Of a stretch of DNA of 64,000 nt, positions 6,355 through 58,939 are shown in pieces. The stretch is from a virus. The stretch is taken from positions 22,339 to 86,338 of IMG/VR virus record IMGVR_UViG_3300046710_000057. One strand, 5' to 3'. The notes under the pieces were generated by a model that did no database searches, was not told the DNA's origin, and worked only from the letters and a program-made list of their open reading frames with translations. How positions within the stretch are numbered: the first letter of the stretch is position 1; every line of letters starts with the position of its first letter. A program made the translations under genes and the position numbers.

Positions 6355-7628
6355 TGTTGTTCCTCCTTGATAATTGCCGAATCTCCAAAGACATCTTTGA
6401 GTCGGCGAATCGTTGTTTCGCAATATTCAGAACTGATGTCAACTCCAATGGAGTCTCTGCCCAATTCTTCGGCAGCAACAAGAGTGGCCCCTACGCCGTT
6501 CATAGGGTCCATTACGATACATGGTCGGATTTCGTCTGACATACACTGGCAAGTAGGCTCCCATCCAACAGTTTCGTATCCGGCAGATACACTTTTGACG
6601 CCCCTTTTAGTAGGGCGAGTGCCAGCCGTTCTGCCATCTGCGTGCTTGTAATGCCCCCTGCCTTCAGCGTTATCCTTTTCTGGGTCAGACCAATCCTTCC
6701 CAAGTAGTTTGGCATACTCTTCGGTTGGCTTAACCACTCTGCGATATGGAGCACCGCAGGAAGCGCAAGCGCCAAACTCGGAGGTGGCTGCTTTGATGCA
6801 AGTATCAGGCAGTTTGATTGGGAAGGTGGCGTAGTGTTTGTACTTTCCACTGATTCGTTCGATGGGGATAAACCAGACGCTTCGGAGTTGTCTTGTTCCA
6901 TCGTAGACTTTGTATTCTGCTGGTCTTGCATTGACCTTCTCCTGATCATGACGTTCTGCCGAACCTTTGGCTGCGCGAGTGCCAGCAGGGAACGTTCCCA
7001 CCTCTTTGACGGCATACTTATCATAGTAGAACTTTGTGTTCTTTGCAAACACGTAGACATACTCATACGATCTGTTTGTTCGCTTGTTGGCTGACGACGG
7101 CATAACCGAGCCAGGATTCTGAAACAGTATCTTAGCCTTCTTGCCTTCAGCGTCGTAAGTGTCCATCATCTTCTCGTTGTAAGACGCACCCTTGGCCCAA
7201 ACGATCTTGTCGGCCACTACCCAGCCGTCTTCTTCGAGAGCAAGTGCAAGGCGCTCAGGAATCATTCTGAGCCTACCGTTCTTGTGACAGTCACCGATGT
7301 TGTACCAGATAGTGCCATCGTCACGAAGGACTTTGCCCATCTTATGAAAGACGATAAGCGAGTTCTGGATGTAGCGATCTACAGTCTTCTCATTGCCGAG
7401 AACGCCATACCAGGAACCACAACCTCCGCAGAATTGTTCCCCTTCTTTGTTCGTCTTCATTGGGAACTTACTATGTTCACAATCAGGCCAGTAACCCCAG
7501 TACGAAGGAGCAATGCCATAGTCTCTCATATCGTGGTAAGGTGGGCTAGTGACAATGCACTGGGCTATTCCTTGGTATTCTGGTCGCTCACACACGTCGA
7601 TCAGATCACCGGTTACAACGTGAATCAT
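6351..7628 (-). CDS. Site-specific DNA methyltransferase (N4-C/N6-A, beta-class order)
   Basis: Catalytic TSPPY N-terminal, HYATFP, SAM-binding VMDPMNGVGAT C-terminal; Cys-rich inserts; ATGA coupling with the upstream gene. Confidence 0.9.
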   Translation of the reverse strand: MIHVVTGDLIDVCERPEYQGIAQCIVTSPPYHDMRDYGIAPSYWGYWPDCEHSKFPMKTNKEGEQFCGGCGSWYGVLGNEKTVDRYIQNSLIVFHKMGKVLRDDGTIWYNIGDCHKNGRLRMIPERLALALEEDGWVVADKIVWAKGASYNEKMMDTYDAEGKKAKILFQNPGSVMPSSANKRTNRSYEYVYVFAKNTKFYYDKYAVKEVGTFPAGTRAAKGSAERHDQEKVNARPAEYKVYDGTRQLRSVWFIPIERISGKYKHYATFPIKLPDTCIKAATSEFGACASCGAPYRRVVKPTEEYAKLLGKDWSDPEKDNAEGRGHYKHADGRTAGTRPTKRGVKSVSAGYETVGWEPTCQCMSDEIRPCIVMDPMNGVGATLVAAEELGRDSIGVDISSEYCETTIRRLKDVFGDSAIIKEEQQ

Positions 7629-12804: not shown

Positions 12805-13395
12805 CTAAATGTATCGTTGATCAACGTCCTCTTCTGGTATGTCCATCATCTCTGCTAACAAAGGTTTAAGACATTGATCTACAACTCCTTTCACGAACGT
12901 TCGTGACTCTTGCAAATGCTCAGAAGCCTCGGTTATTGAATACCCCTGAAGTAACAGACACAAGATGTCTTTTGCTTCAGGAGGGAGAAGGACTATAACC
13001 TTGTCTAATTCAATGCCGAATATAGTCTCTTCGAGTCTGTCAAGTCGGCTAGGTTCTGGGATTAGATCGCCCCTTGTCATTGTGTTGTTGCCGTCGTGTG
13101 AGTTGTTTGTAACTTCTTCGTCTAGTGAGAGGGACCGCGAAACGAACGTGTGTTTCTTTCTACCCTCTCTTCGTATGAAAACCTGGATATGATTGAGGAG
13201 ACATCCGTTACAGAATGTATCGAACTTCACTCCTCGTTCTGGGTCGAACCTTTCCCAACATCGCCAGACCTTCTCTTCAAGCTCATTCTCCAACAGTTCT
13301 TTGTCCCTAGCTCCAAAAGCGAACTTATTGATAAGCATTTTCACTTTCGGTCGCCAAGCACGCAAAGTTTCTTCAAGGTTTCCTGTGTATGCCAC
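12805..13395 (-). CDS. Phage RNA polymerase sigma-70-family factor
   Basis: Region 2 RFDPERGVKFDTF, SLD motif, region 4 LLQGYSITEASEHL. Confidence 0.85.
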   Translation of the reverse strand: MAYTGNLEETLRAWRPKVKMLINKFAFGARDKELLENELEEKVWRCWERFDPERGVKFDTFCNGCLLNHIQVFIRREGRKKHTFVSRSLSLDEEVTNNSHDGNNTMTRGDLIPEPSRLDRLEETIFGIELDKVIVLLPPEAKDILCLLLQGYSITEASEHLQESRTFVKGVVDQCLKPLLAEMMDIPEEDVDQRYI

Positions 13396-30535: not shown

Positions 30536-30607
30536 CTCAGGGGAGAGGATTGGCTACCCCCATCACTGCGTTTATCAGACCCAGTGCTCTCGTTGAGCTA
30601 CCCCTGA
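30536..30607 (-). tRNA. Degenerate tRNA-Ile(GAT)-like gene
   Basis: TCAGGGG/CCCCTGA acceptor, GCTC/GAGC D-stem, CTGATAA loop; aberrant T-loop TAGCCAAT; G.G mismatch in anticodon stem. Confidence 0.6.
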
Positions 30608-30614
30608 GACGCTG

Positions 30615-31111
30615 TTACGACGAATGCTTCTCGATTGCCTCGGTCAGTTTCTCTTCGATCTCATCACTGATACCGAGGTGCATAACGGTAGCACCGCCTT
30701 CTTCTTCCATCGTCGTTCGCTTGCCGATCATACTTCTGGCAGTCTCAATGCCGCCTCTTACGCCACCAGCATGGATTATTTGGATTGCTTCGTTGTTGAC
30801 CTCACCAGTGGACCGGAGCGAGTCTATGACCACCTTAGCTGCACCGTCGCCGTTGTCACGATCATAACCCCAAGGGTCGATCTGATCTTTGGCAATATCG
30901 ACCTTCATAACTCTGCCTACCAGGTAGTCAAAGTAGAGGCGTCCTACTCCAACAATTGTCTGAGCGGCTTCGACAGTCATTGGGGCAGGGTCATACTGCA
31001 TGAATCCCATCCCCTGCGGCCTAGCTGCATTATACAATGCCGCTAATACTGCCGCCTTGTCGAGTCCAGCGATGTCTATGACTCGAAAATTGTCTACTTC
31101 CTCTGTTTGCA
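30615..31111 (-). CDS. Hypothetical phage protein
   Basis: IDIAGLDKAAVLAALYNAARPQGMGF...; AAAGGA RBS. Confidence 0.7.
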
Positions 31112-31450: not shown

Positions 31451-31592
31451 TGATAGGGGCCAAGGAATTGAACCTTTGCTCTTACTCCTTTTCGTAAGTT
31501 GCTTCAGCGACTAGTACGCTTACTTAACCAACCGTTTGGAAAAGGCGAGAATCGAGAGATTATTCTAGCTTACTCTCTCTCCAATGCCCCCA
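31451..31592 (-). ncRNA. Enlarged tRNA-like RNA (142 nt)
   Basis: Acceptor TGGGGGC/GCCCCTA, T-loop TTCAATT, inserted D-loop and variable arm. Confidence 0.55.
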
Positions 31593-55354: not shown

Positions 55355-55747
55355 TGCTGGAACCGGCTCCTCCACATGGTCGGCTGATGAAAGACGGTGA
55401 TGTCAGGGTCAGCAGGCACTCTCATGTCGATGAAATCGACACGTTGGGGGAACGTGTACGAATTGTCGGTAGTTTTCGACATGTCCTGACGTTTTGTACG
55501 AAACCTCTACACTTATCAACATGTGTCGATGTTTCGGTACAGTTGGATAGAAACCCCTACAAGTAGCAACAAGTGTTGGGAACTCTATCCGAGACAGACG
55601 GCGTATAAAGAAGTAGCAGATACACGATTAGTGACGGACAACCGAAGAAAGACCCAACATCTCAGCAAGCCCCTGGAGTCCATAAACGACTCTGGGGGTT
55701 TTGCTGATTTTGGGAACACATCAGAATCGTGCGGCGTATAAGAAGTT

Positions 55748-56191
55748 ATGAGACGGTTTTGGTCCAAAGTCCATATTGGCGGTCCTGATGACTGCTGGGA
55801 ATGGCAGGCCAGTTGTTTCGGAGAGGGTTACGGTAGTTTTTGGTACAAACGGAAGAACGTAGGTACTCATCGAGTTGCTTACGAACTTGGAGTTGGTCCT
55901 ATTCCAGAAGGTCAACAGATTCTTCATACTTGTGATAACCGAAAATGCTGTAATCCTGCTCACTTGTTTCCTGGGACACAACTGGACAACATAAGAGATA
56001 TGGACAGCAAAAAGCGAAGAGTTGGTAACGTCAAACTGACCAACTCTCAGATTATTGAGATTCGTCAAAAGTACATTCCAAGGGTTTGTACTCAACAACA
56101 ATTGGCCGAAGAATACGGCGTGGTTCAATCGCACATTGGACGTATAGTTAGAAACGAACAAAGAGAGGAGGAAAAAACCTATGAGACTTAG
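55748..56191 (+). CDS. HNH homing endonuclease with HTH (copy 3)
   Basis: RFWSKV, CWEW, LHTCDNRKCCNPAHL. Confidence 0.9.
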   Translation: MRRFWSKVHIGGPDDCWEWQASCFGEGYGSFWYKRKNVGTHRVAYELGVGPIPEGQQILHTCDNRKCCNPAHLFPGTQLDNIRDMDSKKRRVGNVKLTNSQIIEIRQKYIPRVCTQQQLAEEYGVVQSHIGRIVRNEQREEEKTYET

Positions 56192-56533
56192 AATTGGAAT
56201 TGACGGCAGGATACTGGGGTTTCTCGGTGTCCACTGGACGCTTGTGGCAAGAGATGTTGCGGAAAGCGATTTGGACAAGGCAGCGTGGGTTTGTGGATAC
56301 CTTGACAAGCTGACTGTCAACGTCCGCTTCCTTACTGGAGCGATATTCGCCACACTGACCCCAAACGTTCCTCCAGTCGTATAACATTTGACGATTTCCG
56401 ATTGTTTACCGACCGTGGTCGGAAACCTGGGCAGGATGCCCTATGGCTAGTGCAGCTAAGCGTTGAACCTTGGATGGAAGTAAACACCAAGTTGAGAAAG
56501 TTCCGCGAACCTGGCGAACGGTTGCCATTTCAT

Positions 56534-56680
56534 GTGGGAGTAGTTTAATACAAAGGCTGAACGGAATAAGGTACTGTCCTTGCATGAAGAGTAGTCTACC
56601 ATGCGAGTGTAGGCAAAACGTCTAGGTAGCGTAAGACCGGTTCAACCTAGAAGTTGGGGGTTCGATTCCCTTCTCCCACT
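56534..56680 (+). ncRNA. Enlarged tRNA-like RNA (147 nt)
   Basis: GTGGGAG/CTCCCAC acceptor; GGGGG-TTCGATT-CCCTT T-arm; about 65-nt structured D-loop insert; 7-bp anticodon stem with 17-nt loop. Confidence 0.6.
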
Positions 56681-56691
56681 TCCTGCCTATT

Positions 56692-58939
56692 ATGATCAAC
56701 AGAGACATCGACATCGAAGTGTTTGGCTATATGGGTGGCGGTGGCGTCACGGTCTTCTCGTGTCTTGATGTGCAGGAGACCTTCAAATGGACCGAGGAAG
56801 CTGTCGGACTGTGTATGGAGTGTCGCAACAGATATAGAGACGGAAACTTGCCACCTTGCTGCGATTGCAGCGGACTCAACCACTCAGACGATCACAATTA
56901 CTTCGAGGAGTTTGATTGGTAGCGAGAGCGTAACTGGGGAGCTACTCAGGAACCTCCTCTTCTGAGTAGCTCCTACTTTTTGGAGGTAATGATGAGAGAT
57001 CGGTTTTTTGCAAGTTGTTCTTTCGAGAATGATTGTTGGGGTCTGGAAGCAGGACTGATATTGGACCGTTGGGATGGCACTGAACTCACTTTGCGCATCG
57101 TAATCGGTCCATTTCACTTTTCTACCGGCGTGACAATAATCAAACCGAAAGAATACTGCGAATGTGGCGACCATGACTAGAGCAGAGCACATAAAAATCG
57201 TCAAAGACGGTTTGCACAAGTTCATTGACGAAAAAATCAACGAAGACAGTAAAGTGGACGTAGACCTGAGTCAAGGGATTTGTGAAATCCTAAGAGATGG
57301 CTATGTAGAGACGAGTCGCGAACCAAACGACACATACTCACTGGTCGTCTTGGTCAATGGTGGGGCGCACAACACTGAGAGAAAGGAAGAATGATGGATA
57401 TAGACTGGGACGATTGGCATTCAGTTGCTTGCGTAGCCTTATGGCCTATAACAGCCACAATAGGTCTTTGGATGGTTATAGGTGTTACGATCTTTAGAGG
57501 TCTGGGATACCTTGCGCGATTGGTAGAACGGAAGGAAGAATGAAAGCAGTCCACTTTGAACTTGGAGCAAATCCTGACGTGAAGACTACTTGGAGCATAG
57601 GTCTCCAAGGTGGCGAAGTAACTACTGGTCACAGAGTCGTCGCTCTCTGGTTTGGTCGTCGGTATCTTGCGATGACTTGGCTTCCAGGCTGGCGATTCAG
57701 CCTTCGGCGTCGGCGACCGAGCAAAGCGATTCCTCAGTCGATTGGGGATGTCATCAACGTTGCGATAGACGATGCTGGTGGCATACATTTGACCACTGTC
57801 ATCACTGATCAGAGGATATGGGACAAGCTGGCTGTTGGCGGTCCCATTCGACGTATTACCGCAGAAGTACGGAGGAAACCTTGAAAACCAATATAACTGT
57901 AGCAATCGTTCTTGTTGTCCTAGTGGTCTTGGTTGGTGCGATCTGGTATAACGCAGCAGTGAACTGCGGACAAAAGCCTATCGTTGGCACTGTGATCGCC
58001 AAGAACATCTGTCAGCACTGGAACTACTCTCATGACCAAGTAGCCGTTCAGGTCAAGACAGGCGGCGGCTATTCTCTCTACACGATCAATGTGAAGTTTG
58101 CTCACTATGGCGCTTTGCAAGTCGGCCATACTTACAGGTTCATATTCGATCAAGGTTTCTTTGCTGATCAGAAACCAATCCAGATTGAAGAGATCACTCC
58201 TGTACCCCAAGTGCCTATGCCTCGAAACGTAAACAGTTTGGCATAAGTGCCGACATTTCGTAACAAGGGGTGATCGGATGGTCAAGCGTATTTCGGACGC
58301 TGAGAAAGAAGACGATGTGGCCTTAGAGATAGGCCGAGCGGTGATAGAAGCGATGCGCATGGCTTCTCAGGACTATGGAGGGGCAGACATTGAAATCTGT
58401 CCGACTGATGGGACTGCATTTCACGTTCTTGTGCGGCGTTGTTCGGAAGACGTGACTCGAATCGAGAATTGTCGCTTACCTGAGTCGGTATGGGGTGAAG
58501 AAGATGGCAAGGGGTAGAATTGACGAAATCGTACTGGTCCAAAAGAACTCTGCGGTAGGACCATCAGATAAACCCACTCTATGCCGACAGGTATACTGGT
58601 TTGATTTGGGCGTCGTATGTGAACGTTGCGCTGCGGCATTTGGACGTAGAGTTCTGGGACTGGCAACATTCTACGAAACCCAATGCGATTGTTGCAAAGA
58701 GACGGTGGTTTGCACTGAACGAAGAGATTACAAACGAATTGTCGTAGAGGAGTAAAATGGCACAGAAGTATATTCGCAAGTGGGGTTGTGGTGCTAATGA
58801 CTGGCACGAACTCAAGAAGAACCGAAAGACGATGACCAAGTGTGGCAGGAAGATCACCGATGGCAAGGTGATAGACGAGGAAGAGTTCAAGTCTATGCCT
58901 AACCGATACTATTGTCACCGTTGTAGGGAAACTGTGTGA
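56692..58939 (+). other. Small hypothetical CDSs (56692-56922, 56980-57180, about 57174-57394, 57540-57884, about 57881-58246, 58278-58517, 58495-58755, 58757-58939)
   Basis: Coupled plus-strand ORFs. Confidence 0.55.
56939..56972 (+). terminator. Hairpin, possible intrinsic terminator
   Basis: GAGCTACTCAG/CTGAGTAGCTC followed by ctactttt. Confidence 0.45.

Follow-up and report, generated by a model that had tools for sequence, protein, structure and literature searches.

Non-decoding tRNA mimics found in phages include the bacterial and phage Y RNAs (YrlA, with Ro60). A closer counterpart of the locus described here is T4 RNAC (species 1 RNA, rnaC), a 139-nt RNA (L020:909-1047) that is expressed late in infection and has been known for decades without a function (PMC3014915, PMC9697503). 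Other precedents are the tRNA genes of the Lak megaphages, which carry "enigmatic" introns (PMC6784885), and tRNA frames with inserts, which are processed and protected from nucleases in E. coli (PMC3753655). With respect to tRNA splicing, the introns in tRNAs of bacteria are of the self-splicing group I type, and HBh' splicing is archaeal (PMC4090602).

Comparison of RNAC in four Tevenvirinae (L020, L142, L143 and L144) showed covariation of its fold, which consists of AA, a 60-nt rod, GG and a T-arm, with 14 pairs changed on both sides. The tip of the rod, TTGACG, is complementary to the 6-nt loop, CGTCAA, of the hairpin in the anticodon position (6 bp, P 0.03 in T4). Both hexamers are kept in all four phages, even where the rod has diverged; the aligner shifts the rod tip in the most divergent of them. 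As the pair is invariant, it shows conservation and not covariation. Based on these sequences, a kissing interaction between the rod tip and the anticodon-position loop of RNAC is likely, and we found no paper describing it.

The window analyzed here, i.e., the whole stretch of 64,000 nucleotides, comes from a peat virus whose record is complete, with 128,636 bases. The phage genome carries a DnaE polymerase, a tmRNA, four tRNAs and a sigma-like gene, based on which its host is considered to be bacterial; no cultured relative of the phage was found. The tRNA/tmRNA cluster is at 28.1-30.3 kb on the minus strand, and a tRNA-Ile(GAU)-like sequence that is degenerate and whose T-loop is non-canonical (~30554-30631, minus strand) lies upstream of the tmRNA. 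The element that is the subject of this analysis is 25 kb away from the cluster, at 56.5 kb on the plus strand, among protein genes (Table 1).

Table 1. Window coordinates of the element, its parts and the features around it.
Feature	Position	Strand	Remarks
Oversized tRNA-shaped RNA gene (the element)	56534..56680	+	147 nt, G1 to discriminator U73; CCA not encoded
Acceptor stem, 5' strand GTGGGAG	56534..56540	+	7/7 Watson-Crick with CTCCCAC 56673-79
D-stem, 5' strand GTTT	56543..56546	+	4/4 with AAAC 56616-56619; U8-A9 before, A14-A15 after
D-loop insert	56549..56611	+	Predicted 4-bp base helix, 8-bp helix, 13-nt loop, 26-nt side segment
G18 G19 C20 A21 and D-stem 3' strand	56612..56619	+	G18G19 at 56612-13
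Anticodon-position arm	56621..56651	+	7-bp stem (56621-27/56645-51), 17-nt loop 56628-56644
Variable loop (4 nt) and T-arm	56652..56672	+	3 G-C and 2 G-U pairs; canonical T-loop
Promoter-like motif GGAAC-N17-CGTA, ECF-sigma type	55713..55738	+	Nearest one upstream of the element
GGAAC-N16-18-CGTA motifs in window	54990, 55579, 55713	+	
GGAAC-N16-18-CGTA motifs in window	34115, 32149, 29709, 26455, 18483, 16936, 15236, 13667, 10523	-	
HNH endonuclease gene	55748..56191	+	PHROG E 5e-33; probably on the same transcript
67-aa orphan ORF	56181..56384	+	
Non-coding spacer/leader 5' of the element, 149 nt	56385..56533	+	Folding z -0.3, not above shuffles
76-aa orphan ORF, two CxxC pairs	56692..56922	+	Start 11 nt past discriminator; no Shine-Dalgarno
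Intrinsic terminator-like hairpin	56937..56980	+	15 pairs, T run; would close the putative transcript

Our analyses confirmed that the element is a genuine, well-formed tRNA-shaped gene. The sequence-only reading had placed it at 56534-56680, with a perfect acceptor stem, a perfect T-arm, the canonical U8-A9 and a GTTT/AAAC D-stem, and its coordinates and motifs match the sequence. All seven acceptor pairs are Watson-Crick (G1-C72, U2-A71 and G3-C70 among them) and U8-A9 and all four D-stem pairs are present, but the T-arm falls short of perfect, GGGGG/CCCTT giving three G-C and two G-U pairs. The U at 56680 is the discriminator, with no CCA after it. None of the 21 stem pairs of the tRNA frame is broken, the acceptor/T branch is 7/5, and the core residues U8, A9, A14, A15, G18, G19, A21, G26, A44, G45 and U48 and the T-loop are all kept.

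A scan of the genome for a T-arm with a matching upstream acceptor strand identified the element as the sole site beyond the four tRNAs and the tmRNA, and placed its 5' end at 56534 and its T-stem at 56656. A relaxed rule for oversized frames identified one site in the genome, the element, and only one site in 100 Markov-simulated genomes; therefore the frame is not a chance occurrence. The element was spanned with no differences by contigs of runs X2 and X3 and by two JGI contigs and, as these derive from other assemblies, an assembly artefact was excluded. It was also identical across several peat samples, whose copies are too close for measuring selection. Both ARAGORN and Rfam at threshold missed the element, and an Rfam scan by E-value picked up just the T-arm and, below threshold, the 3' half of a tRNA (15.4 bits, RF00005).

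Removal of both inserts in silico left a 71-nt tRNA core whose best match among 85 tRNAs was Gly(UCC) (48 vs. 44 for the next). Compared to bacterial Gly(UCC), 12 of the 21 stem pairs are the same, six have both sides changed, three have one side changed and none is broken. The frame is thus undamaged, which does not prove selection after the insertions: as the Gly tRNA used for comparison is not the ancestor, the compensatory changes may predate them. The element has in common with bacterial tRNA-Gly(UCC) the pairs G1-C72 and G3-C70, U73, the D-arm sequence, the 4-nt variable loop and all the core residues, and differs in its 62-nt D-loop insertion, the 17-nt loop on a 7-bp stem, U2-A71 and the absence of both the UCC anticodon and CCA. 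The glycine identity set comprises U73, G1-C72, C2-G71, G3-C70, C35 and C36; the element has U73, G1-C72 and G3-C70, with U2-A71 instead of C2-G71, and lacks a normal loop carrying C35-C36.

The D-loop is 69 nt long (56547-56615), which is 62 nt beyond a 7-nt loop, and the extra sequence sits between A15/U16 and G18G19. In a constrained fold, a 4-bp helix (56549-52/56608-11) is predicted to stack on an 8-bp helix (56579-86/56600-07), and the 26-nt side segment (56553-78) has little predicted structure. Three helices had earlier been proposed for the insert, TACA/TGTA, AAGG/CCTT and GCATG/CATGC. The first was retained, but the other two were ~3 kcal/mol worse than the single 8-bp helix, CTTGCATG/CATGCGAG, which when stacked on TACA/TGTA gave -32.7 compared to -29.6 for the three-helix arrangement. 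The insert alone folds no better than shuffles (z -0.76), so its helices are predictions only. The z for the whole 147-nt RNA was -1.4 to -1.7, and in an unconstrained fold, with tertiary contacts uncounted, the D-stem lost to an alternative by 4.5 kcal/mol. The insert is not present elsewhere in the genome, where its longest repeat is 11 nt, and no antisense target longer than 11 nt was found in the phage genome. Residues 56558-62 of the insert are complementary to 56640-44 in the anticodon-position loop (5 Watson-Crick bp, 7 with a bulge), and at a P of ~0.45-0.55 kissing between the two in the element is at chance level.

The anticodon-position arm has the 7-bp stem and 17-nt loop that had been assigned to it. 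The element lacks a 7-nt anticodon loop with Y32, U33 and R37 on a 5-bp stem, having instead a 17/21-nt loop, with G32 even after excision. Positions 32/38 form a G-C pair and 33/37 a U-A pair, extending the stem, whereas Gly(UCC) has C32.A38.

No sequence homologue from which covariation or conservation of the element itself might be judged was identified in phage records, viral contigs or GTDB genomes. Searches via the neighboring proteins or the capsid relatives also identified none; both flanking ORFs are orphans, and capsid relatives at 64-71% identity exist, in records that are partly short. Matches by blastn against phage records were confined to the T-arms of T5-type tRNAs, and pattern scans of viral contigs and genome contigs returned chance matches or tandem ordinary tRNAs. 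A metagenome scan gave three matches, of which one (L025) was a true look-alike. This 174-nt tRNA-shaped RNA (L025:237-410, plus strand, equal to L158:7826-7999) is on a phage-like contig and has a 7/7 acceptor stem, a D-arm identical to that of the element, a 74-nt D-insert at the insertion site of the element and a branched anticodon arm. A called ORF begins 1 nt past its discriminator. Homology between the L025 insert and that of the element was unsupported (P 0.6-0.7), and a CTTG...GAG helix base common to the two was noted post hoc and left uncounted. The contig carrying the L025 RNA also has a 952-aa major-vault-protein-like gene (L158:927-3785; MVP_shoulder, Vault_3).

A second RNA, at L161:4992-5140 (plus strand), was reached by chance while tracing the neighbor protein of L025. 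It is 149 nt and tRNA-shaped, with a D-stem unlike that of the element and a 72-nt D-insert, and it follows a tRNA-Leu on a contig with genes for Thg1, an RNA ligase and Cpn10. Both ARAGORN and Rfam missed it. Its D-insert is complementary to its anticodon-position loop over 7 Watson-Crick bp (about 10 with G-U, P 0.04). A more degenerate fourth case is in the window itself (31451-31592, minus strand); there the end of the D-insert is complementary to the loop of the variable-arm hairpin, not to the anticodon-position loop (6 Watson-Crick bp, P 0.16), and homology of its insert to that of the element was unsupported (P 0.3). In the element, and in the L025 and L161 RNAs on their unrelated phage-like contigs, the insert directly precedes G18G19 and the anticodon arm departs from the canonical form. 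We found no description of phage tRNA mimics with D-loop inserts in the literature searched. Other unusual tRNA-like genes were a phage tRNA at L126:2929-3020 (minus strand), called as Ile(UAU), whose variable arm is structured and exceptionally long, and a gene at L005:~6850-6935 (plus strand) in which the D-arm is of the Gly/Trp type and the stretch separating the D- and T-arms is enlarged.

The promoter-like motif GGAAC-N16-18-CGTA occurs at 13 sites in the genome, in each case on the strand that is coding locally, compared to a mean of 2.2 and a maximum of 5 in 40 simulations. The sigma-like ORF at 12805-13395 (minus strand) is a candidate for its recognizer. The promoter at 55713, the HNH gene, the 67-aa ORF, the spacer, the element, the 76-aa ORF and the terminator appear to form a single transcript. 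The spacer had no match in Rfam. A possible 9-bp long-range helix (56428-56436/56681-56689) would clamp the spacer and the element, and is probably within chance. Directly upstream of the HNH promoter, at 55579-55705 (plus strand), a terminator-like hairpin of 14 pairs lies ~60 nt past another copy of the motif, possibly giving a small RNA of ~95 nt. A CCA-adding enzyme is absent from the phage genome.

Based on these analyses, we propose that the element is a stable, host-processed, non-decoding phage RNA that is built on a tRNA-Gly(UCC)-type frame and acts in trans, a reading to which we assign a probability of roughly 0.55. The RNA would be transcribed from the promoter at 55713, with transcription ending at the strong terminator, and would be cut by host RNase P at 56533/56534, trimmed past U56680 by a 3' nuclease and given its CCA by the host. 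The tRNA frame may shield the RNA, as a natural counterpart of the laboratory tRNA scaffold. Once released, the ~150-nt RNA could work in trans as a shape mimic, presenting a tRNA elbow and an acceptor end to a protein of the host that binds tRNAs, while its altered lower half would exclude it from decoding. As a guess, the binding partner may be a tRNA-targeting defense enzyme, which seems the most plausible, or a sensor of tRNA state. We assign about half of the weight of this explanation to a decoy or inhibitor role and the other half to a cargo role of the insert.

It is rather unlikely that the element acts in cis, as a processing signal where the operon is divided by cuts of RNase P and a 3' nuclease and the released RNA has no further job. 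Such cleavage might tune expression by separating off the message of HNH/ORF67, so that the 76-aa ORF would be on a nearly leaderless one, to which we give a similarly low probability. The start of that ORF 11 nt past U73, with no Shine-Dalgarno, fits this proposal, as do the even closer ORF start in L025/L158 and the HNH gene upstream of the element, processing of a tRNA cluster having been proposed as a negative control of a homing endonuclease, T4 segB (PMC2330249). However, the next ORF after the L161 RNA has a normal Shine-Dalgarno, and homologues of the protein downstream of the L025 RNA occur without an upstream tRNA-like element. In addition, processing in cis needs mainly the acceptor and T arms. 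The processing signal, an option offered by the sequence-only reading, keeps some probability, but it leaves the two structured insertions and the longer anticodon stem unexplained.

That none of the 21 pairs is broken, that the insertions avoid every core residue, and that new pairs are present at 32-38 and 33-37 all argue against the element being a young tRNA-Gly pseudogene with two insertions that is not yet worn down. We consider such an origin unlikely, even though the element is an orphan with no homologue, the structure of its insert is no better than chance and there are other worn tRNA-like sequences in the genome. Also weighing against it are an insert unrepeated in the genome (longest repeat 11 nt), the recurrence of the same insertion site in unrelated elements, and the identity of the element across several peat samples, with the caveat that these copies are too close for measuring selection.

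Splicing of the element is unlikely, and we hold it to be very unlikely that the element is an intron-bearing tRNA which by the loss of both inserts would become a tRNA-Gly(UCA) reading UGA. The anticodon-position region does contain an HBh'-like motif, in which GTCT (positions 26-29) would pair with AGAC of the loop in a 4-bp Watson-Crick helix, next to a bulge of 3 nt and an outer helix of 2 bp. Cuts there at 56625/6 and 56639/40 would excise exactly 56626-56639, and removal of 14 nt leaves, as had been read from the sequence, the 7-nt loop GTTCAAC, with U33 and A37; ARAGORN then calls the in-silico core a UCA tRNA. The P of this match under loop shuffles was 0.005, or 0.0009 with U33/R37 also required, both being post hoc, and HBh'-like motifs were also present at two other places in the insert. 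The Gly frame with U73 and the unexplained tRNA introns of Lak phages (PMC6784885) are also consistent with a spliced tRNA. However, with up to four successive bulge-helix-bulge cuts, no route removes the D-insert yet keeps G18G19, and the spliced product would have the pairs G32-C38 and U33-A37, G32 being present in 0 of 78 tRNAs checked. The tmRNA points to a bacterial host, whereas HBh' splicing is archaeal and the tRNA introns of bacteria are group I (PMC4090602), and the complete phage genome has no tRNA_int_endo, RtcB or RNA ligase of the tested family. Furthermore, TGA is an ordinary stop, which ends 13 of 40 long ORFs with read-through no longer than for TAG, and the Gly identity pair C2-G71 is replaced by U2-A71. 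The view of the element as a tRNA mimic that cannot decode as transcribed was supported, whereas the intron-bearing tRNA, an option of the sequence-only reading, is weak.

Highly improbable is a pre-tRNA spliced by the bacterial host or the phage, at the HBh' site by an unrecognized protein route and otherwise in the D-loop, to give a UGA-reading glycine tRNA. The only observation in its favor is that the HBh' cuts would excise precisely 14 nt (P ~0.005, post hoc). Stop-codon recoding was rejected, there being no sign of TGA read as sense. A group I intron was rejected since neither insert (62 and 14 nt) is anywhere near long enough to hold a catalytic core, and neither had an Rfam match. The element was also rejected as a Y RNA (YrlA), as its ends close an acceptor stem, there was no Rfam match and the genome has no TROVE/Ro60 gene. 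Lastly, its 7/5 branch and 4-nt variable loop led to the rejection of tRNA-Sec and allo-tRNA, which are defined by an 8/5, 8/4 or 9/3 acceptor branch and a long variable arm (PMC7609411, PMC5389517).

Together, the element and its two look-alikes suggest that a D-loop insert, an intact elbow and a disabled anticodon arm are a design that phages have reached repeatedly, in RNAs that standard tRNA finders and Rfam overlook. The element itself is a weak entry point to such RNAs, being an orphan among the sequences searched. For T4 RNAC, the complementarity of the rod tip and the loop makes a mutational test in a laboratory phage possible.

Several known systems resemble the element in part. Like archaeal tRNAs with non-canonical BHB/HBh' introns, it has one HBh'-like motif (14 nt at 31/32), but it differs from them in its bacterial host, a phage without a splicing endonuclease or RtcB, a D-insert without a usable motif and a product that would be no canonical tRNA. 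The Lak megaphage tRNAs are likewise over-long tRNA-shaped phage genes with no known excision route. For one Lak tRNA-Thr, however, variants with and without the insert have been aligned (PMC6784885), whereas no insert-free allele of the element was seen and one of its two inserts is in the D-loop. The element resembles engineered tRNA-scaffold RNAs (PMC3753655) in keeping the acceptor, D and T arms and in having the anticodon end replaced; the scaffolds are laboratory constructs with cargo in the anticodon stem only, whereas the element also has a D-loop insertion. The scaffolds are a mechanistic analogy to the element rather than a family to which it might belong.

The closest resemblance is to T4 RNAC, whose size is near the 147 nt of the element. 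Both have a tRNA-like acceptor and T-arm, an insert of ~60 nt between the AA and GG of the D region, a longer hairpin without a 7-nt loop in the anticodon position (10 bp and 6 nt in RNAC, 7 bp and 17 nt in the element) and no CCA triplet encoded past the discriminator. In the element the D-arm and the variable loop are canonical, whereas in RNAC the acceptor is imperfect and the D helix has 3 bp and lacks the U8-A9 linker. RNAC is within a phage tRNA cluster; the element is outside that of its own phage, among protein genes. The complement between the rod and the anticodon-position loop is an invariant 6 bp in RNAC, compared to a best of 5 bp, at chance level, in the element. An RNAC covariance model had no match at the element (E<=10), and alignments of the two RNAs were at chance level (P 0.13-0.64), with one common 7-mer that was not significant. 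As the covariance model does not recognize it, the element is not a member of the RNAC family, yet it has the architecture of RNAC. Most probably it belongs with RNAC to one unexplained kind of stable tRNA look-alike, rather than being a spliced tRNA.
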